Shown in pieces: positions 613 to 28,104 of a DNA stretch of 64,000 bases. Source of the stretch: Malacoraja senta (lineage: Eukaryota); assembly GCA_038087875.1 (NCBI GenBank), contig CM075991.1, positions 1,798,001 to 1,862,000 of the forward strand. Reading direction: 5' to 3'. Position 1 is the stretch's first letter, and every line of letters begins with the position of its first letter. The position numbers and the translations under genes were made by a program. A model generated the notes under the pieces. It saw only the letters and a list, made by a program, of their open reading frames with translations, searched no databases and was not told where the DNA came from.

Positions 613-959
613 GATCCATACCGACTCCACATCTCCTGATTAAATGTGACTCCCAGCAAGGGACTGAATTTCATTCCTCACCAACAGAGCTACCCCACCC
701 CCAGTTTTATTACGGGTGACAGTTATAGCATGAACCTGCTGCACATTTATATCTTGGCAGAAGTGTTTGTAGGTTTGTGACGCGCTGTCAGAGTGGGCTG
801 GATGAGTAACTGCAATCTAATTTGTTGTTGTACACCCAACAACCATTGTGCGCTGGTGCTGGAGGGAAAGGGTGTTGAGGGCGGTGATGTGGTGCCAATC
901 TATCGGATGCTTTCTCCTAAATGTTTCTAGCCGTTTGAATGTTGTTGCAGCTGCATTCA

Positions 960-1185
960 TCCGCCCACCAGCGATCCCAGCATACTAACACTATCTTACC
1001 CCACTAGGGACAATTTTACTAAGCTAATGAACCTACAAACCTTTACGTATTTGGTGCGTGGGAGGAAACCGGAGTTCCCGGAGAAAACCCTCGCAGGTCA
1101 TGGGGTCAGCGTACAAACTCGGAGAGGATCGAACACGGGGCTCTTGACACGTAAGACAGCAACTTTAGCGCTGCGCCACTGTGTC
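960..1185 (-). mobile_element. tRNA-derived SINE, degenerate
   Basis: Reverse complement begins gtggcgcagcgctaaagttgctg (A-box-like); body matches the copy at 11876-12170. Confidence 0.7.
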
Positions 1186-1966
1186 TCCTCTTGTTGAGGT
1201 TAATATGAAAAACCTCATAGCACCAGTACCTTAGAATAAAGGACGTACCTTTATGATGAACATGAGGAGGAATGTGTTTAGTCAGCCGGATGGTGAATCT
1301 GCGGAATTCATTGTGGAGGTCACATTGAGGAGTTTGACAGATTCTTGATTTGTAAAAGGTGTGAAAGGTTGTGGGGAGAAGGTGGGAGATTAGGGTTGAG
1401 AGTGAAAGATAGATATCCCACGAATGGATGGCAGGGTAGAATCGATGGGCCGAATGGCCTACTTCTGCTCCAATTATTTATGCACCATTAAAAGACTAAA
1501 GGAAGGAACGCCATGAGAGGGGGGGGGGAGAAAAAAAGAGGGACCTGGCACTTTGGAAGCGCCCTTCATTGGGCCGCTCTTTGCATACATTGGGTATGTA
1601 AGAATTTCACTGTGACTTGTCACATGTGACAATGAAGTATTCATTCATTCATTCACTGTCAAATATGCATTTACCAAAACCGTTCTCAGCGAACTAAGTA
1701 TTGAACAATTAAATTTTCAACACTTAAATAAACATAAATCTAGATGTGGTCTTAAAAGGACAATTTATAATTGGAGCATTTTGCCCAGGTTATTTAAATT
1801 TCCCTACAGGGCGACAGTGTTCCGTGTTTCATGTACCGTGATACTCAGGCCCTCACTAACACCATTGTCATTCAAGTTATCTTTATTATTTGTCCTAGAT
1901 GATATTATTGATGGTTCATCCAGTGAGGGTGTATGAGCGGGGCTGAGAAATTAAAAAGGAATGATC

Positions 1967-2720
1967 ACCACTGTCTCCCCATCTCCTCAGGCACGCAACC
2001 TTGGCGTGATCTTTGACTCAACCCTCTCCCTTGAGCCTCACATCCGCCATGTTGTCAAAACATCATTTTTTCACCTCCGCAACATTGCCAAAATCAGATC
2101 CTCTCTCACCCCCCCCCCCCCGCTGCTGAAAGACTCATCCATGCCTTCATCTCCTCCCGACTAGACTACTGTAACTCTCTTCTCTTTGGAATCAATTCCA
2201 GCAGCATCAACCGACTCCAACTGGTCCAGAATGCAGCCGCTCAACTCATTACCCACACCAAATCCTGGCACCACATCACCCCAGTTCTCAAAGAACTTCA
2301 CTGGCTTCCCATTTCCCACCGGATCACCTACAAAGCCTTCAACAACTTGCCCCCCCCTTATCTCATTGACCTCCTCTCCCCCTACCAACCCTCACGGTCC
2401 CTCAGATCCACATCAGCTGGTCCCCTCTCCACTCCGAAATCAAACCTCTGCACTTTTGGAGGCAGAGCCTTCTCCAGGGCAGCTCCCAGGCTCTGGAATT
2501 CCCTCCGACAACTGGTCCGAAATTTTGAGTCCCTCTCCATCTTCCAGTCCCGCCTCAAGACCCGTCTCTTCACCTCTGCATACCCTTAGTCCCATGTTCC
2601 CCTCCCCTTTGCATCTCTGTTACTGCTCTATTTTGTTTTGTTTATTCCTGACTCTCAATGTAAAGCGACTTTGAGTCCTGAAAAGCGCTATATAAATAAA
2701 ATCTATTATTATTATTATTA
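1967..2720 (+). mobile_element. L2-clade LINE 3' fragment, left arm only
   Basis: RNLGVIFDSTLS..HIRHV.KTSFFHLRNIAKIR and GGRAFSRAAPRLWNSL motifs with a (TTA)n tail. Empty site in the right arm near 23832. Confidence 0.9.
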
Positions 2721-5700
2721 CCATGTGGGGAGCGTAGTCCCCCACCCCCCCCCCCCCCCAAAAAATAGTGAACGGGAATTGGAACCGTTAATATGCCGGG
2801 AGATTGCAGGCAGCTGCAGAGTTGTCACAGTTCGGGGATATTTACTTTCCCAATATAGACTGGGACTGGCATAGACGTAGAGCCATGTCATAGAGCCCTT
2901 CGGCCCAACTCATCCATGTCAATCATGGTGCTCAGGGATTAGATGGGATGGAATTTGTCAAATATGTTCAGGGAAGTTTCATTTGGCAAAATGTAGAGGG
3001 ACCTACAAGGCAGAGGGCAGTGCTTGAACCATTCTTATGCAATTGGGATGGGCAAGGGACGTGTCAGTGGGCGAGCCTTTTTTGGACCACGGGACCGCAG
3101 TTCCCACACACCCGAACAAACTATTCACACAAACTTGATAATAAGGAACAGAAAAGCACTTATGATTTCATGATGTTATTGGCAACTTAGCAAAGGTTTT
3201 GTCAATGTGGTGAACATTATCCACTTTACAGTTTGGAACAAACTATGTGACGGATCTGCTCCGCCATCTACTGGCTGTGCCTCTGGTGATTCTCTTCAAA
3301 CTGATAATTAGGTTCGAGGTAAACAAAAAGCTCGAACAAACTGCTGGAGTAACTCGGCGGGCCAGACAGCATTTATGGAGAACATGGCTAAGCGACGCTA
3401 CGGATCGTGTCTTTGCTTACTTTGGTTTAAACTCAACAATCTGTGGGGATATATTTATTCTGATTCCGGTTCTCCAGAAATGCTGGCTGGCACAATGAAT
3501 GATTTCAGCATTTTGTAGTTTTTGCAGAAGCAAAAATACAAATATGTCTGACGAAAGGTATTGACCACAACGTCACCTAGCCATGTTCTCCAGATATACT
3601 GGCTGTCCCGCTGAGATTTTTTCGCACCTTTCTCTCCTATTGTCGCTTTGGGTTTCTGCTCAACGTTCGGCATCTGCAGTTCCTTGTGTCTATTTAAGTT
3701 CTGGTGACCATGTTCACAGGTATCACAGTAATATATCATGGTTACGGCACAGCCTTACATCTGGTGTGGCGGAGACAACAACGCAACAAAATGAAGTGCA
3801 TTCAATATTAACAGGTTAACACGGGTTACACAATTCCACAGAATTCTCAGTTTAATAACAGTTGTGAGGCAGTTCCTGATATTTGAAGAGTGGCACCGCC
3901 GTCACACAAGCTGAATAAAGCGGAACTGTGAAGTTCACCATGACTAAATAACTCTTTTGGAACCGGTAACAACTTTGGTCTAATGTACGCTGAGGCCTCC
4001 ACAATATGCATGCAGCCATCGAAGCCCTGGACTTTGAATGTCAGTTCCAGCCCCAGTTCAACATCCTGTCAACAATGCAGCAGCAACACACTGTCCTCCC
4101 ACAACACCATGCTGGAATGCAAGCCCAGATATTTGTCTTTAAATCTCTACAGTGCACATTAAACCAAAATTCTTCTGATGCTGAATTCATACACATTTTA
4201 AATGTTAATCTGAAGAGATGAAAAGTAAATCACTTTGGAATTTACTGTGAAGAGACGTGTGGTCAGTGTCCTGTGCTCTGGTGTGTTTTTGTTGGCTTCA
4301 TGACGCAAAAAGCACATTAGGTTGGATGAGCCTTACTGTCATTGGTAACCCTCAGGTGTGTATGTTGGAGCTCAAGCCTCCCATCCTAAGATGTGTGTAA
4401 TAGCTCCTCAGGGCTGCGAACTCGGCCCAGCTGCTTCATGAATGACATTCATACCAGTGTAGGGATGCGCATAATGTTCAATTCCATCTGCAACCTTTCA
4501 CCAAACAGGGCAGTTCATTTTTACAGCAAACAAGATCTAAGCAGCATCTTGTCGATTACCATGTGCCCCGCTGGTGCTGGCACTGATCATCTCCAACAAG
4601 AAGCAGTGTAACTACATTTCCTTGCTATTCATTTGGATAACTTTTGGCTCCACATTCACTATTCTGGAGGTTAGCATTGAGCAGGAACTCAACTGGACCA
4701 GCCATGTAAATTCAACAAAAGTAGTTCATGGGGAAGGGTTATGAATTCTACTGCAAACAACTCGCCTCTTGACATGATGTCCTCGCATAAATAAAATGCT
4801 TCGTACAGAATACATCCTCCCATTGACTGAAAAACAGAATATGAAAATCTATTAAGGAAACGGTCATGCTCTGCAAACATTAGCAGCTCACAGCATTCTC
4901 TCTGTTTCAGTTTCTTAGTGAAGTTTTTTTAATTTCTAATTCAGATCTCTGCTGTGCATTTTAGCATTTCATAAACCTAGTATTCAAAGTATGAATATGA
5001 TAATCCAGCACAAAATCAATAATTTAACATATTGTAATAACGAGTCTGGGATTCGAGCCGAAATGTCACCCATTCCTTCTCTCCGGAGATGCTGCCTGTC
5101 CCGCTGTTTTACTCCAGCTTTTGTGTCTATCTTCGTAGTAATTAGAGAATCAGCTGTTTTGTATAATTTATTTTTGGTGTCAAGAATTCAGCAGCTTCTT
5201 GTTCGGTTGGTCAGGTGGAATGGGTGATGGAGTAGAATGCAGATAAATGTGAGATGCTGCACTTTGGGAGCACTAATGGGCAGAACAGGTAGGGCTCTGG
5301 GAAGTATTGTAGAGCTGACGAGTTTAGGAAGGCTATTTTTTTCACACTAAGTGTGGTGGGGGTAGAGAATGTGCCAGAGGAGGTAGCTGAGTCAAGTACT
5401 ATTGCAACGTTTAAGAAACATTACACAGGTACATGGATAGGATAGGTTCCAAATGCAGCAAGTGGGAGTAGTGTAGATGGGACATGTTTGCCGGTGTGGG
5501 AAAGCAGGACTGAAGGGCCTGTTTCCACGCTGCAAGATCCTATGACTATTCCTTATAATGAGCTCCTGGAGGCATACCGAGGCAGCAGGCCTGGCTCGCC
5601 CCCTGTGGGAACGGGGGAGCCCACCTGGAGTGGGTCCCAGGCTCATCGTCTGCTTCTTGTACTAGAGGACCAGTAACTGGAGAGTGGAGAGAGCCTGCGC

Positions 5701-6379
5701 TGGCAGTGGACGCTGGAACAAAGGTCCGGGAAAAGAACCAGCGGTCTTATCCTCTTGCCCTCAAGGCCGGCTGTGGGAGCCGCCCCACTCTAACCCTCAC
5801 TCCGCCAACCCTCACCCCTCCCCCTCCGGGCATGAATGCACGAAGGCTGAATGCCGGAAGAGGAGCGAATGACAGTTTGCTCCGGATGGAGGCAACGGCT
5901 TCAACGGGGCTTTACAAATGAACTGACACAATGCTCAATTAACCCCTTCGGGAAGGGCCAGGCCATTCTTTGCTCATCCCATCAGGAATAATGGTGGGAT
6001 CTGATAAAGCCACTCAATCATGCTTCCAACGGGAAACAAATTTATATGCAAGTCCTATAATCATGAAAACTTATGGAAATCCTCAGTATACTGTCCCTTC
6101 AATATATCTGTAACATCAGGATTTCCAAAAAGGTAACAAATATCCAATGAGGGCAGATGAAATTGCTGTCTGATGCCGTGGCACCATCAAATAACGTGAA
6201 CTTCACACCATCTCCCAAAAAGGGGCTTTTGTTGAATAAAATAGCATCAGAAATGTTTGCCAAGTGAGGGAGAAGGATGAAACCGGTAAACATAATACAT
6301 CTAGTAAATAAACGTAAAATATCTGGCTCCAGAGAACATTGATGAACAAAAGAGGGATGACTCAGATTGGAGAATAGTG

Positions 6380-7945
6380 AAGTCCTTCTTTGACTCCCCA
6401 ATACACTGGTGGGAAGCTACCTTGGAGAGCATTCGAGGTTCTACATCCTCAAAGATGTTCAGAAAGCAAGAAAGGGTCAACGGGAATTGTACCAATTCCT
6501 GACAGACTTGCAGTATCTCATACATTTGCATTTGAGAGGGACGAATGTGAGGGCGGAACTCCCAGAGGTGAAGTGCCAGCAAAGTTCTCCAAGATCATGT
6601 TCTCATCCAGAGTCTGCTCCATGGAGCAAGATGAGTCGCGCTCACGCTTCTCCTTGACAAAGGTCCACAAGAGGAGTTCTGTGAGTTCACAGCCTTAAGA
6701 AAGAGACTGCTCGGTCACATTGTCACATACAAACATATTGAGGATCTGTAGATCCTTCTATACTGGTCTGTATGTCAGACAGACCATAGGTAGCACAGAT
6801 TCCCAGAACGCCCTGTATATGGAGATCTTGGCGGACAGCAAATTGAAGAGCCTGGAACAACTAATGATCCTGGCGGAACTGACTGGCTCCACCCATCCCT
6901 TTGACTTGAATACGGAAGCGATGGTTTGCCGTCTGAATTGTACTTGGCTCTGTGCGACTCGGTGTGCCAGGCCTGCTGGAAATGTACAATGATATGCTTC
7001 TGGTTGGCAGTATCTTAGACTCCTTGATGAAGGGCATCATCACCCTCATCTCCAAGCAGAAAGGGGAAGAGGATTATAGTAGACCATCTGATACCTTGCT
7101 GATACAATACCTTGTTGATGGTGAGGGACCTTCCCAGTCAGACCCTTCCTATACCACCAGAGTGTCTAAAAATGCATGTTGCTGCTGCTACAGAGAGGAG
7201 TCGGTGATAAGGTCATAACTGATAGAAGCAGAATTAGACCATTCGCACCATCAAGTCTATTCCTCCATTCAACCATGGCGGCTTTATCGCTTTCTCCTAA
7301 CCCCATTCTCCTGCCTTCTCCCTATAACCTCTGACACCCAATACAAATCTACCGGTTGCCCACCTCTTTGCAGAGCGTGGATTTACAAAAAGGCACTGGA
7401 GACAATTCATTGTCATGGTTCATCCCAAACAGTTCCGTAACCGAGGACGATCTGATTTACCGGTTGTTCCCATGGACACGTTGATGTCTCCAGACAGACA
7501 TCATGTGCTTCTGGAAGAAACATCAACATGACCAAAGATACTTATTCTTCCTCCCAAAACCTGTTGGTCTTCCAGCATAGCGTGATGTCCATCAGGGAAT
7601 GTTGCCGATGGCCCATTCTCGACTGTACGAATATGTGATGAATGAGGGTTGCACTGAAGCTTGGTGCAGCCAACACCACGGGTCTGTGAGGGAGGAGCAC
7701 AGACTAGAGTCCTTCTACTTCTGGACATGAAGGCCAGTGCAGTGGAGACGCCTCTCAAACAAGGGAAGGTACACCCTTGGTGGCAACATGAGTGGCAAGG
7801 GTGTTTTCTTTAAAAATAGATGAGAAAACTACTGAGTAGACACTATTGAATTTATAGACAATGAGAATGTATGGAGAGTTCTTGCAGTTTTTATTTTGTA
7901 TATACTTGTATTATAAATAAAGTTTATTTGTGGAAAAAATCTATT
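6380..7945 (+). mobile_element. Tx1/L1-group LINE fragments, internally deleted, with a nested CR1 3' piece at ~7205-7345
   Basis: FYILKDVQKARK.QREL, KIMFSSRVCSMEQDE.SRF, MKGIITLISKQKGE (RT N-terminus); degenerate C-terminus AHLFAE..SWFIP.SSVTED..LKLGAAN; AATAAA plus A-rich end near 7915-7940. Confidence 0.8.
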
Positions 7946-8060
7946 AATCATATACGTTATGCTATTTTTTTTTAAAGAATCCTAATAATGTAAATATTAG
8001 ATATCTTAAATAATTCTGCTCCTATCATTATTTGAAGACATATTTTCCTCTTCGTTCTCC

Positions 8061-8362
8061 TTAGTTCCTCATTACTTTTTCGTCCCGATGGATCCGTGGC
8101 AAAGTGTCGCCTCTCCAGAGTCCCAAGAGCTGAATTGTGACAAGTAGCAGAGAAATATAAGTGTTCCAATGCAATTTTCGTTTATCTTCAGTTTCTACAG
8201 ATGCATTGTTTGTTGTATTTTGATCACGGTAACATTTTTCCTGCACTTCTTTCTGGACCCGGTCTATCTCCAGTTTGTACAGGTATTCATGTTCCTTTAT
8301 TCTGTCTTGGATCTCCTCACTCTCCACTTCATCACTCAGGAGGTGGGGGTAGTACAGGCTCC
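8061..8362 (-). CDS. Candidate terminal coding exon of an unknown small coiled-coil protein with a C-terminal hydrophobic segment (left copy)
   Basis: Acceptor tgttttaatgatcacag|GG (phase 1). Open frame GSLYYPHLLSDEVESEEIQDRIKEHEYLYKLEIDRVQKEVQEKC...TYISLLLVTIQLLGLW...RN*, kept open in both arms. Confidence 0.55.
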
Positions 8363-9058
8363 CTGTGATCATTAAAACACACAGGTTGAAAAACTGCAGC
8401 ACAGTTGGCATCCTGTGAACGACAGCCAGACAAGATATTCAGAAGGTGCACGTATAATTAAAGTAGTAACTACATTTGTACATCTATCAGATACTCATCC
8501 TCCAACCTTTTATTAAACCTTCCTGGTCTACAATTGTCCTCAGACTTTTCCCGGCAGGCAGCGGAGAAGCCGAGGCTGCTGCTTCGAGAGACGGAGCCCG
8601 CGGCCGACAGAGTTGACGGAGCCTGCGGCGGAGACCTGGGTCGGCGCCACAGAGGACCTGGCAGCAATAGTGGAGAGGTCAGGAGATGGCGCCGACCGAC
8701 GGACTAGGGCGGATCACGTGGGATTGAAGACGCCATTGCCGGATGAAGCACAAAGGAGGACTCGGCGTGGGGGGGGGTCGTCGTGAGGGATGCGGGAGGG
8801 AACACCGGAGGACCCGGCGTGGGGGCCTGGCGCGGGGGAGGGGAAGAACAAAGGGGACCTTGTAACTTTGTAAGCGCCATTTATGTGGCGATTATTTGCA
8901 TATCTTGGGTATGCAAGTCAAGCATTTTACCGTGACTTGTCACATGTAATAATAAAGTATTAATTAATTCATCCATTCAGATATTTCACTGGAGGTGGCA
9001 AGTGAAGAGCAATTAATGAAATCAGGACACTGACAATCATTGTAACCACATGAATTAC

Positions 9059-9120
9059 CGGCACCGAAACCCTTTAGAAACATATTTAGATTTCATGAGA
9101 ACTTTGTCATCTATTTAAAT
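9059..9120 (-). CDS. Candidate 62-nt exon carrying the start codon (ATG at 9083-9081; MFLKGFGA-)
   Basis: Acceptor ttttctattatttag| and donor CCG|gtaatt. The ATG is in phase 1 register with the exon starting at 8362. Confidence 0.4.
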
Positions 9121-9329
9121 CTAAATAATAGAAAATCATAGATGGCATGTGTCTGGTGCATTATGATCAGTTAATCCCAAGTTTGGACTTTAAAAATCTC
9201 TATTTCCATCAGCAAGAAAAGACGAATGATACTAAAGCCAGTGGGCAAGCATTGACAGAGTGCTAATGATAATTAATCAGATAAAGACACAGCAGCAATA
9301 AAACGAAAAGCAGGTTAAATGAATACAGG

Positions 9330-9860
9330 TTGGCTAGTTGGCAGGAGGCAAAAGGTAGCAATAAAGGGGGCTTTTTCTGGTTGGCTACGAGTGACCAGCG
9401 GAGTTCCGTAGAGGTCATTGCTGTTGCCGCTACTCTTCACTCTTCACTCAAACCTCATTCAAAATTACCAAACAGTGAAAGACCTGGATCGAGTGGATGT
9501 GGAGAGGATGTTTCCACGAGTGGGAGAGTCATCAAGGACCAGAAGGTCGTAGCCTCCGAATTAAAGGAAGTTCCTTTAGGAGATGAGGAATTTATTTCAT
9601 CAGTGGGTGGTGAATCTGTGGAATTCATTGCCATAGATAAGGTGAAGTTCCGAAGGTAAGCCAGCCAAGAATATAAAAGAGGATAGTAAAAGCTTCTTTG
9701 GTTTGTGAAGAAGAAGAAAATAGTTAAGACCAAAATTGGACCCTTGGAGATTGAAAAGGGCAAATTTATTATGGGGAACAAGGAAATAACAGACGAGTTG
9801 AACAGGTACTTTGGATCCGTCTTCATATAGGAGGGCACAAGCAAGATTTTCACTGTACTT
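9330..9860 (+). mobile_element. Composite CR1 fragments (mirror at ~14890-15430, minus)
   Basis: KKKIVKTKIGPLE.EKGKFIMGN.EITDELNRYFG.VF CR1 ORF2 segment joined to 3'-end pieces. Confidence 0.75.
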
Positions 9861-9939
9861 GTGCATCACCATAGATGTGCACATGAGCATAAACTTGACG
9901 ACTTGAAATGCCTTAAAAGACACTTCACAAACTCGTCGA

Positions 9940-10195
9940 TCACCAGGCCAGGAAGGCATCGAGCGCCCACCGACTCTTACCTGGTCGCTTGTGGCCCAAA
10001 GTCGCTGTTGAGTGGGAGCTGGGGCGTCGCTACACAGGGCGCGGTTCACATTAGAGTGTGCGGGAAGCGCCGCCCGCCTCGACTCGCACCGGCGACGCGG
10101 GACAATGCCACTCCCTGTGACGTCACTGCCGTCCAACGGGCGCGAGATCAGGCGGCCGTTGGTCGATCGGAATTCAAAATCTCCCGAAGATCGAC
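9940..10195 (-). promoter_or_regulatory. CpG-rich promoter / candidate non-coding first exon
   Basis: High CpG density; palindromic CRE GTGACGTCAC 10117-10126; MYB-type sites CAACGG 10134-10139 and CCGTTG 10156-10161; CHR-like TTCAAA 10173-10178; strong minus-strand donor CAG|gtaaga at 9981/9980. Confidence 0.55.
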
Positions 10196-10204
10196 ATTAA
10201 AAGC

Positions 10205-11390
10205 CGGAGTAACTGAGCGGGAAACGCAACATCTTTGTAGAGAAGCAATGGGAGACGTTGCGGGTCGAGACCCTTCTTCAGACTAGTTAGGGATAAGGGG
10301 AACGAGAGGTATTGACGATGATGTAGAGAGATAAAGAACTAATGAAAGATATGCAAAAAAGTAACGATGATAAAGGAAACAGGCCATTGTCTGTTGGGTG
10401 AAAACGAGAAGCTGGTGCGACGTGAGTGGGGGAGGGGTGGAGAGAGAGGGAATGCAGAGGTTACTTGAAATTAGATAATTCAATATTCATACCATTGGGC
10501 TGTAAGCTGCCCAAGCGAAATATGAGATGCTGTTCCTCCAATTCGCGTTTCGCCTCACTCTGACAATGGAGGAGACCTAGGACTGAAAGGTCAGTGCGGG
10601 AATGAGAAGGGGTGTTAAAGTGTTTAGCAAACTGTAGGTCAGGTGGGTACAGGCGGGCTGAGCGAAGGTGTTCAGCGAAACGATCGCCCAGTCTACGTTT
10701 AGTTTTGCTGATGTATAAGAGTCCACATCTTGAACAATGGATACAATAAATGAGGTTGGAGGAGGTGCAAGTGAAACTCTGCCTAACTTGAAAGGAATGT
10801 TATGGTCCCTGGACAGAGTCGAGGGAGGAGGTACAGGGACAGGTGTTGCTTCTTCTGCGGTTGCAGGGGAAGGTATCTGGGGAGGGGTGGTTTGGGTGGG
10901 AATGGATGAGTTAACCAGGGTGTCGCGGAGGGAATGGCCTCCGCGGGAGGTGGAAAGGGGTGGAGATGGGAAGACGTGGCTAATGTTGGGATCCCGCTGG
11001 AGGTGGCGCAAATTTCAGAGCATTGTGTGTTGTATGTGACGGCTGATGGGGTGAAAGGTAAGGACGATGGGGACTCGGGCTCTGTTGTAAATAGGGGAGC
11101 AAGGGCGGAGCTGCAGAGACACGAGTGAGGGTCTCATCTATGATGGCAGAGGGGAACCCCTGTTCCCCAAAGAAAGAGGACATCTCGGATGTCCTGGTAT
11201 GGAACACCTAATTTTGGGAGCTGATGCGGCATAGACGGAGTGTTTATGGGGAAAGAGTCTTTGCTGGAAGCAGGGTGGTAAGACATGTGGTCGAGATAGT
11301 TGTGAGAGTCAGTGGGTTTGTAATAGACATCAGTCTATAGACTATTTCCCGTGCTGGAGACAACGAGATCAAGAAAGGGGAGGGAGGTTT
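10205..11390 (-). mobile_element. Penelope-like element 3' part (RT thumb, GIY-YIG endonuclease, pLTR), degenerate
   Basis: RHLQRDP..SHVFPSPPLS..SLRDTLVNSS, FHTRTSEMSSFF..QGFP; hammerhead-like module at 10253-10283. Confidence 0.85.
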
Positions 11391-11875
11391 AAACTACGCG
11401 ATGGTGGAGATACCCGCCTGCGGTCACGTGGTGTTGGGTGGCTTCTGTGTCGGATGTTGGAATGTCGGAGAAATTGTTCTTCAAGAAATTCCTTCAAAGG
11501 TCATTGCTGTTCATAGAGATCCACTGAATTCCCAAGGTAACTATCGATGAAGGAGGTCATGCAGCCTTTCCGAATTAATCCATTGACACAGATCCCATGT
11601 CCTCTGTCATTCTGGCTTCCAGGTTGGTTTTAGTAAGTCCAGAATTTTCTTCTCCATTTGCTCACCTTGGGAATAATTTAATGTTTCGCGCTCTTCTTAT
11701 GGTGATAAAAATGTACTGATATCTGGAATATGTTTACGATAACAGCTGATGTGACATATATGGACTTCCAAAAAGCCATCTGACAAAGTGCCACATGGGG
11801 ACTTTGCCCCCTCAGTATTGAAGGTCTCGGAATAAGAAGGCCTTCAAGAAGCATAGATGGAGAATTAATTGGGAG

Positions 11876-12170
11876 GTTATGGTGGCGCAGCGGTGGAGTT
11901 GCCGCCTTACAGCGAGTACAGCGCCGGAGACTCGGGACCGATCCCGACGACGGGTGCTGTCTGTACGGAGTTTGTACGTTCTCCCCGTGACCTGCGTGGG
12001 TTTTCTCAGAGATCTTCGGTTTCCTCTCACACTCCAAATTTCTACATATTTGTAGGTTAATTGGCTTGGTAAATGTAAAAATGGTCCCTCGTGCGTGTAG
12101 GATAGTGTTAAAGTGCGGGGATCGCTGGTCGGCGCGCACCCGGTTGGCCGAAGGGCCTGTTTCTCTAAAC
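11876..12170 (+). mobile_element. tRNA-derived SINE with CR1-like tail
   Basis: A box TGGCGCAGCGG, degenerate B box, tail ggccgaagggcctgtttc. Related copies at ~14040-14500 (-), 26340-26570 (+), 57570-57770 (+) and 59440-59750 (-). Confidence 0.8.
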
Positions 12171-15632: not shown

Positions 15633-15694
15633 GTTTAAATAGATGACAAAGTTCCCATGAAATCTAAATACGTTTCTAAAGGGTTTCTGCACTG
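15633..15694 (+). pseudogene. Mirror 62-nt exon in the right arm; start codon is ACG at 15670-15672
   Basis: Splice sites tttag|G and CTG|gtaatt are retained; the ATG of the left copy reads ACG here. Confidence 0.35.
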
Positions 15695-16402: not shown

Positions 16403-16704
16403 GGAGCCTGTACTACCCCCACCTCCTGAGTGATGAAGTGGAGAGTGAGGAGATCCAAGACAGAATAAAGGAACATGAATACCTGTACAAACTGGAGATA
16501 GACCGGGTCCAGAAAGAAGTGCAGGAAAAATGTTACCGTCATCAAAATACAACAAACAACGCATCTGCAGAAACTGAAGATAAACGGAAATTGCATTGGA
16601 ACACTTATATTACTCTGCTACTTGTCACAATTCAGCTCTTGGGACTCTGGAGAGGCGACACTTTGCCACGTATCCATCCGGACGAAAACATAGTGAGGAA
16701 CTAA
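16403..16704 (+). CDS. Candidate terminal coding exon, right-arm paralog
   Basis: Same acceptor and an open frame of the same length as 8061-8362, with few amino acid differences, all in the C-terminal half. Confidence 0.5.
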
Positions 16705-16821
16705 GGAGAACGAAGAGGAAAATCAATGTCTTCAAATAATGGTGGAAGCAGAATTATTTAAGATATCTAATATTTACATTATTAGGGTTCTTTTTTTTAA
16801 TTAACATAAAATATATGATTA

Positions 16822-18390
16822 ATAGATTTTTTCCACAAATAAACTTTATTTATAATAAAAGTATATACAAAATAAAAAGTGCAAGAACTCTCCATACATT
16901 CTCTTTGTCTATAAATTCAATAGTGTCTACTCAGTCGTGTTCACATCTATTTTTAAAGAAAACACCCTTGCCACATGTTGCCAGCAAGAATTTACCTTCC
17001 CTTGTTTGAGAGGCATCTCCACTTGACTGGCCTTCATGTCCAGAAGTAGAAGGACCCTAATCTTTTTCCTCTCTCACCGACCCGTGTTGTAGGCTGCACC
17101 AAGCTTCAGTGCTACCCTCATTCAGCACATACTCGTACAGTCTGGAATTGGGCCTTCGGCAACATTCCCTGATGGACATCACGCTATGCTGGGAGACCAA
17201 AAGGGGATTGGGAGGAAGAATAAGTATCTTTGGTCATGTTGATGTTTCTTCCAGAAGCATTTGATGTATGTCTGGGAACATCAACGTGTCCCTGGGAACA
17301 GCCCATAAATCAGATAGTCCTCTGTTACGGAGCTGTTGGGATGAACCATGATAATGAATTGTCTCCAGTGCCTTTTTGTAAATCCACACTCTGGAAAGAG
17401 GTGGGCAACCGGTAGATTTGTATTGGGAATCGGAGGTTATGGGGAGAAGGCAGGAGAATGGGGTTAGGAGAAAGCGATAGAGCCGCCATGATTGAATGGA
17501 GGAATAGACTTGATGGGCAGAATGGTCTAATTCTGCTTCTATCACTTATGACTTTATCACCGTCTCCACTCTGTTGCAGCAGCAACATGAATTTTTAGAC
17601 AGACTCTGATGGTATAGGAAGGATTTGACTGGGAAGGTGCCTCTCACCATAAGCAAAGTATTGTATCAGCAAGGTATCAGATGGTCTAATATAATCCTCT
17701 TCCCCCATCTGCTTGGACATGGGGATGATGATACCCTTCCTCAAGGAGTCTGAGATACTGCCAACCAGAAGCATAGCATTGTACACTTCCAGCAGCCCTG
17801 GCCCACCGAGTCCCACAAAGCCAAGTACAAGTCAGACGGCAAACCATCGCTTCCGTGAGTTTTATTCAAGTGAAAGGAATGGGTGGAGCCAGTCAGTTCC
17901 GCCAGGATCATTAGTTGGTCCAGACTCTTGCTATCCTCCAAGATCTTCATATACAGGGCGTTCTGGGAATCTGTGCTGCCTATGGTCTTTCTGACATACA
18001 GACCAGTATAGAAGGATCAGCAGATCTTCAATATGCTTGTATGTGACAATGTTACCGAGCTGTCTCTTTCTTAACGCTGTGGATCACAGTATTCCTCTTA
18101 CGGACCTTTGTCAAGGAGAAGCGTGAGCGCGACTCACCCTGGTCCATGGAGCAGACACTGGATGAGAACATGATCTTGGAGAACTCTGCTGGCACTTCAC
18201 CTCTGGGAGTTCCGCCCTCATATTCGTCCCTCTCAAATGCAAAAGTATGAGATACTGCAAGTCTGTCAGGAATTGGCACAATTCCCGTTGACCCTCTCTT
18301 GCTTTCTGAACATCTTTGGGGATGAAGAACCTTGAATGCTCTCCAAGGTAGCTTCCCACCAGTGTATTGGGGAGTCAAATAAGGACTTCA
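16822..18390 (-). mobile_element. Mirror copy of the Tx1/L1-group fragments in the right arm
   Basis: ORFs 18111-18359, 17741-17950 (KTHGSDGLPSDLYLALWDSVG) and 17595-17816. Confidence 0.8.
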
Positions 18391-21300
18391 CTATTCTCGA
18401 ATCTGCGTCATCCCTCTTTTGTTCATCAATGTTCACTGGCGCCAGTTATTTAACGTTTACTTTCTAGATGTATTATGTTTACCCCTATCATCCTTGTCCC
18501 CCACTTGGCCAAACATTTCTGATGCTATTTTATTCAACAAAAGCCCATTCTTGGGAGATGGCCTGAAGCATGATTGAGTGGCTTTGTGAGATCCCACCAT
18601 TATTCCTGATGGGATGAGCAAAGAATGGCCTGGCCCGTCCCGAAGGGGTTAATTGACCATTGTGTCAGTTCATTTGTAAAGCCTCGTTGCAGCCATCGCC
18701 TCCATCCGGATCGTCAGCGAACTGTCATTCTCTCCTCTTCCGGCATTCAGCCTTCGTGCTTTCATGCCCGGGGGGGGGGGGAGGGTTGGAGGGGTGAGGG
18801 TTAGAGGGGGGCGGCTCCCACAGCCGGCCTTGAGGGCAAGGAGATAAGACCCCTGGTTCTTTTCCCGGCACTTTGTTCCAGCTTCCACTGCCATCGCCGG
18901 CTCTCTCCACCCTCTGGTCCTCTCGTACAAGAAGGAGACGACGAGCCTGGGACCCACTCCAGTAGGGCTCCCCCGTTTCCACGGAGGGCGAGCCGGGCCT
19001 GTTGCCTCGGCATGCCTCCAAGTGCTCGTTATAAGGAGTAATTATAGGATCTTGGGGCGTGGAAACAGGCCCTTCAGTCCTGCTTTCCCACACCTGCAAA
19101 CTCTCTACTCTACTTCTACTCTACTCCCACTTGCCCGCATTTGGCCCAAGTAACCTGTCTAAATGTTTCTTAAACGTTGCAAAAGTACCCGACTCAGCTA
19201 CCTTCTATGGCACCTTGTTCTATACCCCCACTACCCTTATTGTGAAAAAGTTACCCTTCCTAAATCCCTCAGCTCTGCAATACTCCCCAGAGCCCCACTG
19301 TTCACCATGTAGGTTCTGCCCATTAGTGCTCCCAAAGTGCAGCATCTCACATTTATCTGCATTCTATTCCATCAATCATTCCTCAGCCCACCTGACCAAC
19401 CGAACAAGAAGCTGCTGCAATTTTTGACACCAAAAATAAATTATACTCAACAGCTGATTCTCTAATTATTACGAAGATAGACACAAAAACCTGGACTAAA
19501 TCAGCGTGACAGGCAGCATCTCTGTAGAGAAGGAATGGGCGACGTTTCGGGTCCGGTCCCAAACACTCATTATTACAATATGCCAAATTATTCATTTTGT
19601 GTTGGATTATCATATTCATACTTTGAAAACCAGGTTTATGAAATGATAAAATGCACAGCAGAGATCTGAAGTAGAACTTAAAAAGACTTCAGTAAGAAAC
19701 TGAAACATACAGAATGCTGTGAGCTGCTGGTCTGCAAAGCCTGACAGTTTCCTTAATAGATTTTCATATTCTGTTTTTCAGTCTTCTGCACGAAATTGTA
19801 TTTATTTTATTTATGTGAGGACATCATGTCAAGAGGCGAGTTGTTTGCAGTAGAATTCATAACCCCTCCCCCTGAAATACTTTTGTTGAATTTACATGGC
19901 TGGTCCAGTTGAGTTCCTACTCAATGCTAACCTCCAGAATAGTGAATGTGGAGTCAACAGTAATCCAAATGAATATCAAGGAAATGTGGTTACACTCCTT
20001 CTTGTTGGAGATGATCAGTGCCAGCACTAGCGGGGCACATGGTAATCGTCAAGATGCTGCTTAGTTCCTGTTTGCTGTAGAAATGAACTGCCCTGTTTGG
20101 TGAAAAGTTGCAAATGGAATTGAACATTATGCACATCCCTACACTGGTATGAATGTCATTCACGAAGCAGCTGGGCCGAGTTCGCAGCCCCGAGGAGCTA
20201 TTACACTCACATCTTTGGATGGGAGGCGTAAACTCCAACAACCACACCTGAGGGTTTCCAATGGCAGTAAGGCTCATCCAACTTAATGTGCTTTTTGCGT
20301 CATGAAGCAAACAAAAACAGTCCAGTGCGCAGTACACTGACCACACGTCTCTTCACAATAAATTCCAAAGTGATTTACTTTTCGTCACTTCAGATTAACA
20401 TTTATAATGTATTTGAATTCAGCATCAGACGAATTTTGGTTTAATGTGCACTGTAGAGATTGAAAGACTAATATCTGGGCTTGCATTCCACCATGGTGTT
20501 GTGGGAGGACAGTGTGTTGCTGCTGCATTGTAGACATGACGCTGAACTGGGGCTGGAACTGACATTCAAAGTCCAGGGCTTCGGAGGCTGCATGCATATT
20601 GTGGAGGCCTCAGCATACATTAGACCAAAGTTGTTACAGTTTCCAAAAGAGTTATTTAGTCATGGTGAACCTCACAGTTCGCATTTATTCAGCTTGTGTG
20701 ACGGCGGTGCCACTCTTCAAATATCAGGAACTGCCTCACAACTGTTATTAAACTGAGAATTCTGTGGAATTGTGTAACCCGTGTTAACCTGTTAAGATTT
20801 AATGCACTTCATTCTGTAGCGTTGTTGTCTCCGCCACACCAGATGTAAGGCTGTGCCGTTACCATGATATATTACTGTGATACCTGTGAACATGGTCACC
20901 AGAATTTAAATAGACACAAGGAACTGCAGATGCCAGAATTTGAGCAGAAACCCAAAGCGACAATAGGACAGAAAGGTGTGAAAATATCTCAGCGGGACAG
21001 CCAGTATATCTGGAGAACATGGCTAGGTGACGTTGTGGTCGAGACCTTTCGTCAGACATATTTGTATTTTTGTTTCAGCAAAAAACTACAAAGTGCTGGA
21101 ATAACTCAATGTGCCAGGTAGCATTTCTGGAGAACCGGAATCAGAATAAATATATCCCCACAGATTGTTGAGTCTAAACCAAAGTAAGCAAAGACACGAT
21201 CCGCAACGTCGCTTAGACATGTTCTCCATAAAGGCTGTCTGGCCCGCCGAGTTACTCCAGCAGTTTGCGCTTTTTGTTTCGCTCGAACCTCATTATCAGT

Positions 21301-21999
21301 TTGAAGAAAGTCACCAGAGACACAGCCAGTAGATGGCGGAGCAGATCCGTCGCATGGTTTGTTCCAAGCTGTAAAGTGGATAATGTTCACCACATTGACA
21401 AAACCTTTGCTAAGTTGTCAATAACATCATTAAATCATAAGTTATTTTCTGTTCCTTATTATCAGGTGTGCGTGAATAGTTTGTTCGGGTGTGTGGGAAC
21501 TGCGGTCCCGTGGTCCAAAAAAGGCTCGCTCACTGACACATCCCTTACCCTTCCCAATTGCCGAAGAATAGATCAAGCACTGCCCTCTGCCTTGTAGGTC
21601 CCTCTACATTTTGCCAAATGAAACTTCCCTGAACATATTGGACAAATTCCATCCCATCTAATCCCTCAGCACGATGATCGGCATGGATGAGTTGGGCCGA
21701 TGGGACTTTATCCGTGCTCTATGACATGACTGGACTTTGTGCCTTCCCCACAGTGGGAACCATTGTGGGGGGGATGTTTTTATGTTTAATGTTAAATTCT
21801 TCTTTAATGTTCTGTTGTATTCTTATTAGTGTGCTGCAATGGCAACTCGAATTTCACTACACCAATTGGTGTATGTGACAATAAATGAACCTTTGAACCT
21901 TTGAGTCTACGGCTATGCCAGTCCCAGTCTATATTGGGAATATCACCTAACTGTGACAACTCTGCAGTTGCCTGCAATCTCCCGGCATATTAACGGTTC

Positions 22000-22480
22000 A
22001 TTAGCATATTAGCCAAGAATATAAAGGATAGTAAAAGCTTCTTTAGGTCTGTGAAGAGGAAAAAATTAGATAAGGCAAATGTGGGTCCGTTGAGGATAGA
22101 AACAGGTGAATTTATTATGGCGAACAAGGAAATGGCAGACGAGTTGAACAGGTACTTTGGATCTGTCTTCACTAAGGAAGACACAAACAATCTCACAGAT
22201 GTACTAGTGGACAGAGGACTTAGGGTGACGGAGGAACTGAAGGAAATTCACATTAGGCAGGAAATGCTAATGGGTAGACTCCTGGGACTGAAGGTTGATA
22301 AATCCCCAGGGCCTGATGGTATGCATCCCAGGGTACTTAAGGCAGTGCCTCTAGAAATCGTGGACGCATTGGTGATCATTTTTCCAATGTTCCATAGATT
22401 CAGGATCAGTTCCTGTGCATTGGAGGGCAGCTAATGTTATCCCACTTTTTAACAAAGGAGGGAGAGAGAATAAACAGGGG
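22000..22480 (+). mobile_element. CR1 ORF2 internal fragment, right arm only
   Basis: ORF 22051-22434 ...DKSPGPDGMHPRVLK...; WRAANVIPLFNKGGRE. Confidence 0.9.
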
Positions 22481-23643
22481 ATTTTACTTCGGAGTCACGT
22501 GAGTGATTCCGTGAAGAACCACCAGCCCGCATGCGCATCATTACGTCTGTCGCATGGTGAAGCATCCGACTGGCAGGCGCGTCGCTACTGCCATCAGTAA
22601 GTTTAAACCTCCAGGTAAGTTTTGTATTTCTTACCAGGTTCCGGTTTTCTTGCAGGAACCTTTTTTTACAGAGGTTTCCTGCTGGATATTGTCGCGAAGT
22701 CCGGCGAGCCGCGGGGAAACCGGCTATGGGGTGTGGGGAGACTCTGGTCCCGACCGCGGAAGCTCGGATAGCCGGCGGACGACGGGTTCGCTACTCCAGT
22801 CACTGACAATGCGGTCAGCGGCTCCCAGACCGCTGTGGTTCCCAGGACATGGGGTAAAACCAACAAAAGTTGGTCAGGCCTATGGACTCGGACGAGTCGG
22901 GCCGGGAGGATTCCCCTCCGTTAATGGATAACATATTTGGACGGTTGTCCAGGATGGAGCTCCTAATGGAGAGGATGCTCCAACAAGATACACTCCAACA
23001 GGAGGAGTTGTGTCAGCGCCGGCCTCTTCGAGAGCCCGTGCCAGCGGCACCTGTTTCAGGGCTGCTTAATGTCTCCCTCTTGGAGGAGGAGAGCATGCGG
23101 GGCCAGTATTATTCTGCCGCTGAGTCTGTGGGTTTAGCCGTGGAGCATACACCAAGGGATGAAGAGCACGAGTCAGAGGTACCATTCCTGGCAGCAAGGT
23201 TTGCCATCCCAACAGAATCAGGGACAAAATGTTACATCCTGGTATAGGTCCGTTGGAAGGGCCATATCAGCGCAGGTATCTTCAGGGGCCTGCGGCAGCA
23301 CCGGTTTCAGGGCTGCCTACGAATCGCCCTCTCTGAGGAGGGGAGTGCGAGTGGTCAGTATGTAACTGGCTTCAAATTCTAAAGTATGTCCGTGGAACAT
23401 ACTGGAGCACATGCGTTTGGCTTCAAGAGAATCCTCACAACCGAAGGTGTTGCTGCTAGAAGAGTTGGTTACCAGCCGTTGGCAGAATACGCGGAAGGGG
23501 CCAGAGTTCCCCTCACGCTACGTGCCGCATTAGAGCCAGCCGCCGAATCTTCTATTCAGGTAAGACCTATTCAACAGGCAAAACCTGGATGAGGAAGCAA
23601 AAGCTGTCAGACCAATCAAGGTACCAACGTCGAGCAAAGCTTC
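22481..23643 (+). mobile_element. DIRS1-like 5' terminal / gag-region fragment, right arm only
   Basis: Starts with attttacttcggagtcacgtgagtga, identical to the terminus at 59897; peptide RPMDSDES matches RPVDSDES in the 59897 element. Confidence 0.7.
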
Positions 23644-24398
23644 ATGAGTTGGGCCGAAGGGCCTGTTTCCGTGCTCTATGACATGACTCTATGGCTATGC
23701 TAGTCCCAGTCTATATTGGGAAAGTAAATATCCCCAAACTGTGACAACTCTGCACCTGCCTGCAATCTCCCGGCATATTAACGGTTCCAATTCCCGTTGA
23801 CTATTTGGGGGTCAAAAACTACGTTCCCCACATGGTGATCATTCCCTTTTAATTTCTCAGCCCCGCTCATACATCCTCACTGGATGAACCATCAAAAATG
23901 TCATCTAGGACAAATAATAAAGAGAAATTGAATGACAAAGGTGTTAGTGAGGGCCTGAGTATCTCGGCACATGAAACACCGAACGTTGTCGCGCTGATTT
24001 TGCAAACAGCCAGGCATCTATTGGTGGGAAATTTGAATAACCTGGGCAAAATGGTGTGTTCCAATTATAAATTGTTCTGGTAAGACCACATCTAGAATTA
24101 TGTTTAACCAAATGTCTGTAGCCTCCTTTTGCTCTGGTATTTTATTTAATTCACATGTTTAATCGATAATGTTTGATTATTAATGTTTAATGTTTTATGT
24201 GTCATTCCTAACTGTCACTGTATGTCATGTTGTCACTTGCGGGCGGAGCACCAAGGCAAATTCCTTGTCTGTGAATACTTGGCCAAAAACGTATTCATTC
24301 ATTCATTTATCCATTCATTCACTCATTCATGTATATAACTGTAAACAATGTAAATGGTCAATACTTAGTTCGCTGAGAACGGTTTTGGTAAATGCATA

Positions 24399-24489
24399 AG
24401 AGAAGGGTCTCGACCCGAAATGTCGCCCATTCCTTTTCTCCAGAGATGCTGCCTCACCCGCTGAGTTACTCCAGCATTTTGTGTCTAGC
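24399..24489 (+). mobile_element. 91-bp Penelope pLTR-derived mini insertion with 15-bp TSD
   Basis: TSD tttggtaaatgcata at 24384-24398 and 24490-24504; absent from the left arm. Confidence 0.85.
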
Positions 24490-24513
24490 TTTGGTAAATG
24501 CATATTTGAAAAG

Positions 24514-24579
24514 TGAATGAATGAATGAATGAATGAATGAATGAATGAATGAATGAATGAATGAATGAATGAATGAATA
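24514..24579 (+). repeat. (TGAA)n microsatellite, tail of a minus-strand L2-tailed SINE-like repeat
   Basis: About 16 TGAA units versus about 4 in the left-arm counterpart at ~1639-1655. Confidence 0.85.
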
Positions 24580-25004
24580 CTTCATTGTCACTGTGACAAG
24601 TCGCAGTGCAATTCTTGCATACCCAATGTATGCAAATAGTGGCCCATGAAGGGCGCTTCCAAAGTTACGAAGTTCCCCGCGCCAGGTACCTCTTTTTTCT
24701 CCCCCCCACCTCATGGCGTTCCTTCCTTTAGCCTTTTAATGGTTCAGAAGTAATTGGAGCAGAAATAGGCCATTCGGCCCATCGAGTCTACCCTGCCATC
24801 CAATCGTGGAATATCTATCTTTCCCTCTCAACCCTAATCCCCCGCTTTCCCCCCACAACCTTTGACACCATTACAATGAATTCCGCAGATTCACCACCCG
24901 GCTGACTAAACACATTCCTCCTCATCTTCATCCTAAAGGCACGTCCTTTTATTCTGAGGTACTGGTGCTATGAGATTTTTCACATTAACCTCAACAAGGG
25001 GAGG

Positions 25005-25785
25005 AGGTAAAGTTCTCCCTTACATCGCAAGGCACTCCACAAACTCCCTTTCTTTGGAGTCCAGTACAAACCTGATTTTTGCAGTCTACCTGCATGTTGA
25101 AACCACCCAAAACAACCGTAGCATTACCTTTACAACATGTCAATCTTAACTCTTGATTCAACTTGCACCCTATATCCAGGCTATTGTCTGTGGGCCTGTA
25201 GATAAGTCCTATTAGGGTATTTTACCATTACAATTCCTTAGTTCTATCCATACTGATCCCACATCTCTTGTTTCAATGTCACCCCTTGCATGGGACTGAA
25301 TTTCATTCCTCATCAACAGAGCTACCCCACCCCATTTGCCCACCTGTCTGTCTTTTCGATAGGACGTATACCCTTGAATATTCATTTCCTTGCCCTGGCC
25401 ATCTTGCAGCCATGTCTCTGTAATTCCCACAAAATCATACTTGCCAAACTCTAACTGAGCCTCAAGCTCATCAGCTTTATTTCTTATACTTAGCGCATTT
25501 ATATACAACACTTTGACTTTGGTGTTCACCTCCCCTCTCACACCGGTCACTATTGGCCCTGACCTTACTCTCTTATCCTTTCTCGAACATTCCTTCCCAT
25601 TAATTGGGGAGTCTTTTGTAACTTTTTCCCGCACTCACTTCCCCATTAACTCCATCTTTATATTCCCAATTTGTCAACCCCCCCCCCCCCATTATTTGGT
25701 TTAAACCCACACGTGTAGCACGAGCAAACCTGCCTGTCAGAACGTTGGTCCCCCTCCAGTTAAGGTGTAACCCATCCCTTTTGTA
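25005..25785 (-). mobile_element. CR1 fragment (end of ORF1 and APE endonuclease)
   Basis: YKRDGLHLNWRGTNVL (SGNH end); LYINALSIRNKADEL, GITETWL, GY..YRKDR..GKWGGVAL. Confidence 0.9.
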
Positions 25786-28104
25786 CAACAACATATTGAA
25801 TTGCAGTTACTCACCCAGCCTACTCCGACAGCGCGTCACAAACCTATAAACACTTCTGCCAAGGCATAAATGTGCAGCAGGTCCATGCGATTATTGTCAC
25901 GCGTAATAAAACTGTTGATCGGCCACAACTATAGTATTGGCTCTGTCCCGCACGCCGAAGTTCAGGAAGTGTGTTAATGGCTTAGATAAGTTTCAAAGTA
26001 GATTTACTGGAGTGATTCCAAGTGCAACATTTTATTCACATAGAAAGGTTGAAGAGGAAGCTGTTCAAATGTGAACGGGATGCCAACGTCCGAAACCAAC
26101 ATAACAATCAGGAAGCCTCAAGGGCATGTGGATAAAACAGAACGACAAGCCACTAGAGAAAAGTTAAAACAATCCGGAAGGAAATGAAATAAAACGAATG
26201 GCAAAGGAAACTAAAGTGAAATGTGGGAACATTTACGTCCTGTCCACGCTGCAGCCTAACGGGAATCTTTTCACTCCTTCCAACTTCTGACAATGGTCTT
26301 CCACCTCAAAAATCAACTCGGTTACTCCTGCCATGGGGCTGTCCAGAGGCGCAGCGGTAGAGCTGCTGCCTCACAACGTCGGGTCGGATCCTGTCTCCGG
26401 GTGCTGTCTGTGCGGAGTTTGTACGTTCTCCCGGTGGCCGCGTGGGATTTCTCCGGGTTCGCGCCATTTCATAGAAACAGAAACAAAAACATTTCCTTTC
26501 ACACTCCAAAGACTTGCAGGTTTGTGGGTTTATATTTTCCGTAAATTGCCCCTAGTGTGTAGGATGCAAGTGTGAATACAAAAGGACTGTACTTTTTGCA
26601 TTTCCAGCATCTGAAGCTTTCTGTCAGGGGTTGTTTACAATTCGCCAGTGGCGAGGATCTGGAAGGCTCTGGCATTTGAGGTGGGGGAGGGGGGTTGGCG
26701 GATTAAAATTCAGCTGATCGGGGACTGAAAGGGAGAAAAGGAGCTTCGGGCAAGTGAGGAGCGGGTTTACGCGGGATCATATCATATGGTTGTGAATACG
26801 ATGACACCCATCATTAAAGGGGAAGTAGATTGGACTTTTCTGCCTTCAATCACAGTGAGAAATGTGGGAAATCCGATGTGGTGGATGTTTATGTTAACTT
26901 TTATATAGTTGTGTGTCTTGTTGCTCTTTTTTTCGTATGGCTGTATGGTAATTCGCATATCGCTGTATCTTAATTGGTACATGTGACAATAAAAGACCTT
27001 TGAAACCTTTACACTTTTACCGCTATATCGTTACGAACGCCATGGGAGTGTCCGCAAAAACGAGTATTGTTTGTATCCCCGCACGAGGGTTGGGTGCTGA
27101 CCAGAATGTTCGTCCGTAATACGAGGAAGATCAAAGGTTTTTTAACAGTTGTCTTGGAAGTGGGAATCTAGAGAGAGTTGAGAGTTATCTACACAGGGTT
27201 ATGAAATGTGTAAATCAGACAGGGAAACATGAGTGGCGGTGACTGTTTGCAAAAGAGGAAGCAACAACGGCGATTTACTGGCCCTTGTGGACACCGAAGT
27301 GAGAACAATCAGAAGAGATGTAACTGACAGACTGCGCATGGGATATTGTTATATGTTATGTTTAAGAAGGAACTGCAGATGCTGGAAAATCGAAGGTAGA
27401 CAAACATGCCGGAGAAACTCAGCGGGTGAGGCAGCATCTATGGAGCGAAGGAAATAGGCGACGATCCTTCTTCAGACTGATGTGGGGGTGGGAGGGGCGG
27501 GAAGATGAAAGGAAGAGGCGGAGACAGTGGGCCGGGAGAGATGGGAAGGGGAGGGGAAAGAAGGAGAAAGCAGGGATTACCTAAAATTGGAGAAGTCAAT
27601 GTTCATACCGCTGGGGTGTAAACTACCCAAGCGAAATATGAGGTGCTGCTCCTCCAATTTACGGTGGGACTCACTCTGGCCATGGAGGAGGCCCAGGACA
27701 GAAAGGTCGGATTCGGAATGGGAGGGGGAGTTGAAGTGCTGAGCCACCGGGAGATCATGTTGGTCATTGCGAACAGAACAGAGGTGTTGGGCGAAGTGAT
27801 CGCCAAGCCTACGCTTGGTCTCACCTGACTGCTTGGGTCCTTGGATGGAGTCAAGGGGGGAGGTAAAGTGACAAGTTTAGCATTTCCTGTGGTTGCAAGG
27901 GAAAGCGCCAGGAGAGGGGGTGGTTTGGGTGGGAAGGGACAAATTGACCAGGGAGTTACGGAGGGAGCGGTCTCTGCGGAAAGCCGAAAGGAGAGGAGAT
28001 GGGAAGATGTGGCCAGTGGTGGGATCCTGTTGGAGGTGGCGAAAATGACGGAGGATTATTTGTTGTATGTGACGGCTGGTAGGGTGGAAGGTGAGGACAA
28101 GGTC

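Follow-up and report, generated by a model that had tools for sequence, protein, structure and literature searches.

An old inverted segmental duplication with a truncated ITPRIP-like gene copy in each arm in the skate Malacoraja senta

A stretch of 64,000 nucleotides from Malacoraja senta (assembly GCA_038087875.1, contig CM075991.1, positions 1,798,001 to 1,862,000; hereafter the window, with coordinates counted from its first letter) contains an imperfect palindrome of about 25 kb at 702..25914, each arm of which carries a truncated ITPRIP-like gene copy (stub). An earlier note, made from the sequence alone, had described arms of 9–11 kb around a 5-kb spacer, and self-BLAST of the window upheld both these coordinates and the description. 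The palindrome is an old local inverted segmental duplication and an ordinary decaying duplicate. We consider it likely that it arose as a one-off event in a skate-like batoid, by the steps proposed below, and is now decaying. Segmental duplications are, by working definition, longer than 1 kb and more than 90% identical; the arms exceed both values, lie in opposite orientation and hold non-repeat content in the form of the gene stub.

Collinear inverted homology extended from 702/25914 inward to 9884/14876, in blocks at 702–834/25914–25782, 1185–1655/25003–24562, 1664–1730/24398–24332, 1729–1970/24106–23833, 2714–2913/23842–23644, 2896–6026/21704–18565 and 6201–9884/18568–14876 (E = 0 for each of the last two), with an ungapped identity of 0.88–0.96. 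The left arm (702..9884; 9,183 bp), which we regard as the original copy, is joined to the predicted exon 1 and promoter of the gene; the right arm, its inverted duplicate (14876..25914; 11,039 bp), is ~1.9 kb longer owing to insertions. Between them lies a spacer of 4,991 bp (9885..14875) comprising the predicted exon 1 and promoter, repeats and a second CpG-rich segment. Approximately 7 kb of the arms could be aligned continuously, the outer 2 kb being interrupted by insertions. Comparison of 1–760 with 25000–36000 revealed no inverted homology past 702/25914, the outer flanks being unrelated. The sole run of N in the window (48909–49108) is far from the palindrome, which itself contains no assembly gap.

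Across the core of the arms (2896–9884 versus 21704–14876), 478 of 6,741 aligned columns were mismatched (236 transitions and 242 transversions; 7.1% divergence or 92.9% identity, Kimura two-parameter distance 0.075), with 44 gaps. CpG-context sites differed in 21.6% of cases, versus 6.1% of other sites. Self-comparison and sliding identity, both proposed as checks in the earlier note, confirmed the inverted blocks and gave 86–97% identity per 300-bp window. Pieces private to the left arm in the outer 2 kb were the 749-bp tail of a long interspersed nuclear element (LINE) and ~350 bp including a piece resembling a short interspersed nuclear element. The former (1971..2719, plus strand), a fragment with a (TTA)n tail and no Pfam match, is one that we take, from its sequence, to be a LINE 3′ end. 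A further left-only indel of 178 bp is situated in the core (6023..6200). Right-private pieces in the outer part measured 106, 175, 227, 778 and ~1,650 bp. They include a 106-bp insertion with a 15-bp target-site duplication (24399..24504), a ~1.65-kb insert (22000..23643) made up of a LINE reverse transcriptase fragment and other sequence and bordered by a 100–200-bp internal direct duplication, and a CR1-like LINE endonuclease fragment (25004..25781, minus strand; Pfam PF03372 at 25215–25634). Of nine arm-specific indels, one had a clear target-site duplication, three had 6-bp matches, possibly by chance, and five had none.

The view of the earlier note that this is an old, real duplication was thus borne out by the 7.1% divergence, by the private insertions and by right-arm words in same-species sequencing runs (see below); a fold-back artefact was ruled out by divergence and arm-specific insertions. 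A giant DNA transposon or foldback element, which would be expected to show a target-site duplication at its outer ends, a transposase and a high copy number, was likewise rejected, as the outer flanks are unrelated and the spacer holds no transposase-like long open frame. The arms contain a host gene with its intron, and their unique parts were near spacer-level contig depth, in so far as depth gives a hint. The outermost block, 702–834/25914–25782, was considered as a dispersed CR1 match and rejected, since it is collinear arm sequence outside the CR1 piece. An 88-bp LINE endonuclease piece (614–701) adjoins the left outer boundary and matches 25246–25333 in direct orientation (86%); it may have been inserted from a template at the breakpoint or may adjoin it by chance.

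The segment 7400–14870 was compared with contigs, and contigs only, from four of 20 listed runs. X1 and X2 are same-species runs, possibly the source of the assembly and hence not independent, while organisms B and C are independent; contig depth served as a hint rather than as a copy number, and some differences are uncounted. No RNA run was among the 20 listed runs with words of the window, which has no bearing on expression. Same-species spacer contigs differed from the window at 4 of 1,679 and 0 of 1,720 positions (0–0.25%), far below 7%, and the arms are therefore not ordinary haplotypes. The fraction of right-arm 31-mers also occurring in the left arm, the spacer or the rest of the window was 0.129; right-arm words were recovered from X1 at 0.38 and X2 at 0.22 (other organisms, 0.06–0.10), and this same-species excess over 0.129 indicates that right-arm-specific sequence exists in the reads of this species.

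The left junction (9884/9885) was bridged by a same-species contig (X1 record 4, 9845–10283, two differences) and by a contig of organism C (X6 record 29, 9828–10338), and the distance-to-end column suggests the same for B. As contigs of related species join the left arm to the spacer, we take the left arm to mark the original position. Between organism B and the left arm, 99 of 1,294 positions differed, as compared with 68 of 1,289 between the two arms; for organism C, 14, 44 and 32 differences were counted in three intervals where the right arm had 12, 29 and 23. Both arms share a letter at 8258 and at 9072 that none of the listed contigs of B and C carries, and each of these organisms gave one contig at 9151–9326 at spacer-like depth, a weak hint of a single copy. 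As the outgroups are more distant from the left arm than its partner arm is, the duplication appears to postdate the split that separated B and C from this lineage, and it probably dates to ~0.7 of the age of that split if rates are equal. A pedigree-based rate for the epaulette shark, given as 7e-10 per generation in PMC10587355, would lead to ~53 million generations, which is implausibly old, and no absolute age is defensible; the 37–75 million years obtained under assumed rates of 0.5–1e-9 per year were not adopted as an age.

Among 28 arm sites examined (from 40 of ~1,130 variant rows), the right-arm letter was the alternative at 23. Within 8932–9368, same-species contigs differed from the left arm above the spacer rate (10/437 for X1 record 2, 5/440 for X2), and in X1 record 2 letters of the right arm were interspersed at five of the listed sites. 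This contig could be explained equally by a deep allele, by a third copy or by patchy conversion. Extra contigs at 8258 point to further related stub copies elsewhere in the genome.

Both arms contain the 125-codon open frame that defines the stubs. The left stub (8061..8411, minus strand) has its ATG at 8411 and 116 codons followed by a stop, with a frameshift near codon 112; the right stub (16354..16704, plus strand) shares frame and stop, has ACG in place of ATG and is without a cognate exon 1. Their layout consists of an N-terminal hydrophobic segment, an acidic helical region and a second hydrophobic segment (hydropathy peaks at 1–19 and 81–103). Family homology covers codons 1 to ~110, after which both stubs shift frame near 112 and stop at codon 117. 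Since the frameshift and the sequence downstream are common to both arms, the break preceded the duplication.

Protein search retrieved as relatives P0001 (528 aa, E = 4.8e-33), which clusters with ITPRIP-like proteins from Leucoraja, Rhinoraja and Amblyraja, and P0002 (537 aa, E = 2.5e-32), an ITPRIP-like protein of the skate Rhinoraja, both with Mab-21_C. A wider search returned 42 proteins, chondrichthyan ITPRIP-like sequences first, then those of coelacanth, lungfish and mammals, mostly named ITPRIPL1. In trees of 16 sequences the stubs were sisters (100/100) inside a skate clade (96/97; 100/99), on a long stem branch of 0.31–0.37 changes per site. Judged by sequence, they are ITPRIPL1-related members of the Mab-21 family, the tree leaving orthology to ITPRIPL1 or ITPRIP undecided. 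Skate ITPRIP-like proteins (XP_055517974.1 of Leucoraja, XP_078284837.1 and XP_078284961.1 of Rhinoraja, XP_032869687.1 of Amblyraja) are 50–68% identical to the stubs over the first 111 residues, and the upstream extension of one relative matches the exon 1 predicted in the window. The stubs differ from them in keeping ~110 of 537 codons, in the length of the stem branch and in the absence of the Mab-21 domain PF20266, which was present in six of six full-length relatives scanned; Pfam gave no match above cut-off on either stub. No Mab-21 coding sequence was found in the 64-kb window by tblastn with P0001 and P0002, the two stubs being the only matches below E = 0.4, and the missing 3′ part could lie beyond the left end of the window. 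A word-based search among proteins of 63–203 residues revealed no short homologue of the stub, which is weak evidence. Batoids have several ITPRIP-like paralogues: three records come from Rhinoraja and two from Narcine, and within each set the contigs are of equal length. P0005, an Amblyraja ITPRIP-like record of 316 aa without most of the Mab-21 region, is apparently another shortened member. The part of the literature searched contained no paper about this locus or about ITPRIP-like genes of skates.

One cluster member, P0012, carries 41 residues upstream of the usual start, and the best tblastn match of this extension in the window was on the minus strand of the spacer, at 10085–10053 (8/11) and 10000–9980 (6/7; sum E = 0.005). 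The match ends at a donor GT at 9980 and suggests a non-coding exon 1 at 9981..10130 (minus strand, 5′ end approximate), followed by a predicted intron 1 of 1,568 bp (8413..9980, minus strand) with an AG acceptor one base before the left ATG; splicing of this exon to the left ATG exon would restore the frame of the relative. The model of exon, intron and promoter is drawn from homology, with no same-species RNA used. A CpG-rich promoter-like segment (10001..10250, minus strand; GC content 0.60, CpG observed/expected ratio 1.3) holds TGACGTCA at ~10125 and a GC box at ~10075, which we take to be a cAMP response element and an Sp1 site. Two AATAAA hexamers at 7890..7928 (minus strand), 135 and 168 nt past the left stop, might serve as poly(A) signals or might belong to the tail of a repeat. 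The inner boundary of the duplication (9884) falls ~96 bp inside the 5′ end of intron 1, and the right copy consequently has no exon 1; the putative promoter and exon 1 in the spacer would serve the left copy only. A second CpG-rich spacer segment (13530..13750, plus strand) with a donor-like site near 13636 is oriented to the right stub. The stretch 13530–13842 has a homologue in organism C and a second copy, ~90% identical, in X1 and X2 contigs (13605–13842); either an alternative first exon or the promoter of another gene may lie here.

The longest run of identity between the arms coincides with the gene-derived sequence: 184 bp at 8226..8409 (minus strand; codons 2–62, partner at ~16356–16539) are identical where ~12 differences would be expected. 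The permutation P value for this run was 0.0006, and 0.0004 and 0.0006 when stratified by CpG and restricted to the inner 2 kb, respectively; it rose to 0.11 in the most conservative test, in which events within 10 bp were merged. Silent sites in codons 2–62 were unchanged as well (37 sites, P = 0.07), and replacement changes did not avoid family-conserved columns (P = 0.35). Codons 63–116 displayed seven replacement and three silent changes, close to neutral. Conversion would explain the joint loss of silent and replacement changes in one block as well as the neutral-looking tail. Selection fits the deficit of replacements and the low divergence to organism C, but would need luck at the 37 silent sites and would have to cover the copy without ATG. 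We lean towards reading the tract most simply as a short, relatively recent conversion patch, perhaps laid over earlier protein constraint.

The course of events that we favour would start from one paralogue of an ITPRIP-like family that had expanded locally, the paralogue having been truncated beforehand. Some 9 kb of the left copy, from just inside intron 1 outward, would have been copied in inverted orientation 5 kb away, probably by template switching during replication or break repair. Template switching is a familiar mechanism of duplication; no clear microhomology was seen at the inner junction. The right copy would have been born without exon 1, and so without a promoter exon, losing its ATG later, and both arms would then have drifted with little conversion, none of it arm-wide. 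An old inverted segmental duplication with a duplicated pseudogene offers a close likeness, in that an intronic boundary strips the copy of its first exon and near-neutral decay follows; the locus departs from an ordinary duplicated pseudogene in that its gene-derived tract has changed less than the arm around it.

Several observations weigh against this account. The right junction (14875/14876) was not bridged among the contig rows listed, and it rests, like the cis arrangement of the arms, on the gap-free assembly alone. The stub differs between arms at 11 of 348 sites, versus 467 of 6,393 in the arm (Fisher P = 0.002), with replacements depleted (8/274 sites, P = 0.002) and silent changes not clearly so (3/74, P = 0.22), a pattern that fits selection; the organism C contig over 8198–8538 (341 bp) had only 14 differences, versus 8–9% nearby. 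The second and third longest identical runs (112 and 98 bp) were likewise longer than the mean under permutation (P = 0.003 and 0.001), which may reflect more than one conversion patch or clustered mutations. Finally, the right-arm letter occurred in outgroups or other contigs at 15 of 21 arm differences in 8932–9368, which is more lopsided than expected; faster evolution of the left arm could be responsible, as could a bias in the rows listed.

A rival idea is that the left copy, though truncated, is still a live gene, with a spliced exon 1 and a 116-residue membrane protein that has the outer domain and the membrane anchor, lacks the Mab-21 domain and is kept by purifying selection, the right copy being a conversion partner or itself selected until its ATG was lost. 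We regard this as unlikely without dismissing it. The CpG-rich promoter-like segment, donor, acceptor and ATG are intact on the left, the AATAAA hexamers lie past the stop, and ~110 codons have stayed free of stops and indels despite the long stem; the depletion of replacement changes and the low divergence to organism C speak for it as well. However, an intact frame could date from the full-length era, the two lesions (a frameshift and the loss of the 3′ part) are what a pseudogene typically shows, no short relative was recovered among the proteins of 63–203 residues searched, silent sites in codons 2–62 are equally unchanged, and replacements show no avoidance of family-conserved columns. 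Human ITPRIPL1 is described in PMC11357910 as a single-pass protein, highest in testis, and it is through its outer, extracellular domain that it reportedly binds CD3-epsilon. The stub keeps the corresponding region, with only 17–19% identity to two mammalian ITPRIPL1 proteins there, and any link of the stub to CD3-epsilon is by analogy. An expressed and selected left product displaying only the outer domain might act as a decoy or stand-alone T-cell ligand in a cartilaginous fish, with the inverted copy preserving the first 62 codons by targeted conversion as the remainder of the palindrome decays, a scenario to which we attach a small probability.

The earlier note had further proposed that the locus may behave like large mammalian palindromes, which shelter testis genes and undergo conversion between arms, and that it may flip its spacer. 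The definition of primate X palindromes in PMC8327919 asks for arms no shorter than 8 kb that are at least 99% identical; here the arms span 9.2 and 11.0 kb, though with ~7 kb continuously aligned, and identity over 6,741 columns is 92.9%. With mammalian palindromes such as those of the primate X (PMC8327919) and the Y palindrome P6 (PMC3723533), the likeness lies in inverted arms of ~8 kb or longer that flank a spacer of a few kilobases, in one gene copy per arm and, possibly, in the local conversion tract, and the difference in arms that are 93% identical, carry private insertions and hold truncated genes, one of them without promoter exon and start codon. What each arm houses is a truncated stub rather than an intact gene. 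Arm-wide behaviour of the mammalian kind was not supported by the sliding comparison, with windows short of >99% and at most one short patch that looks homogenised. At 7% divergence and with insertions breaking up their homology, the arms should seldom recombine, and flipping of the spacer is thus unlikely. Ongoing arm-to-arm conversion with occasional inversion of the spacer would account for the 184-bp tract and for X1 record 2, which has right-arm letters and ten differences from the left arm where spacer contigs have at most 4/1,679; but that contig equally fits a deep allele or third copy, the 44 gaps and kilobase insertions have gone unrepaired, and no inverted-spacer joint was seen among the 15 joints listed (4,733 further). 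We judge this reading very improbable.

A head-to-head joining of two haplotypes or of distant paralogous loci during assembly is less credible still. It would suit the unbridged right junction and the further copies of the stub and of 13605–13842 in same-species contigs, but is at odds with 7% divergence and private insertions set against 0–0.25% for same-species spacer contigs, with the lack of an N gap, and with right-arm words above the expectation for a left-only genome (0.38 versus ~0.12–0.13). The suggestion of long double-stranded RNA (dsRNA), in the form of a hairpin locus making small RNAs against full-length ITPRIP-like paralogues, we hold to be extremely unlikely. Complementarity is perfect exactly over the gene-derived tract, and endo-siRNAs derived from pseudogenes are a described class (PMC3616710). 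However, a single transcript of at least 8 kb would be required, with a ~7.9-kb loop between the tracts; the sole promoter candidate lies inside that loop and points outward, Rfam returned no match on 1–28000, and other paralogous contigs differ from the tract (8258). As the stubs point away from each other, transcription driven from the spacer would give sense RNA in either direction, and the products could not pair as dsRNA; read-through transcription from outside would be needed, and no sign of it was found.

Elsewhere in the window, at least five exons with SRCR domains of a DMBT1/CD163/WC1-like gene occupy 42746–49993 (minus strand; three by Pfam PF00530, five by tblastn), and the N gap at 48909–49108 sits among them. 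The stretch 36179–40621 (plus strand) holds six near-perfect 63-bp tandem copies (36179–36561; 98% matches) and, after them, a near-full-length but broken CR1-like LINE with endonuclease and reverse transcriptase domains. Fragments of Penelope-like retroelements were identified at 52589–53350 (with a GIY-YIG match at 52589–53347), 27600–28060, 29158–30799 and, within the spacer, 10577–11014. A 244-codon reverse transcriptase frame at 62064–62798 (plus strand; PF00078) is presumably DIRS-like. At 34103–34708, two open frames (146 and 156 codons) overlap on opposite strands, and neither gave a Pfam match.

Read as a decaying inverted segmental duplication, the palindrome is an example of a partial inverted duplicate born without its first exon and then left to decay, and as it stands it matters little beyond adding a broken member to the locally expanded ITPRIP-like family of batoids. 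Were the stub expressed and under selection, conversion would be seen to be confined to a coding patch within a 93%-identical palindrome, and the outer-domain function of ITPRIPL1-like proteins would prove separable from the Mab-21 domain in a jawed vertebrate of an early-branching lineage.

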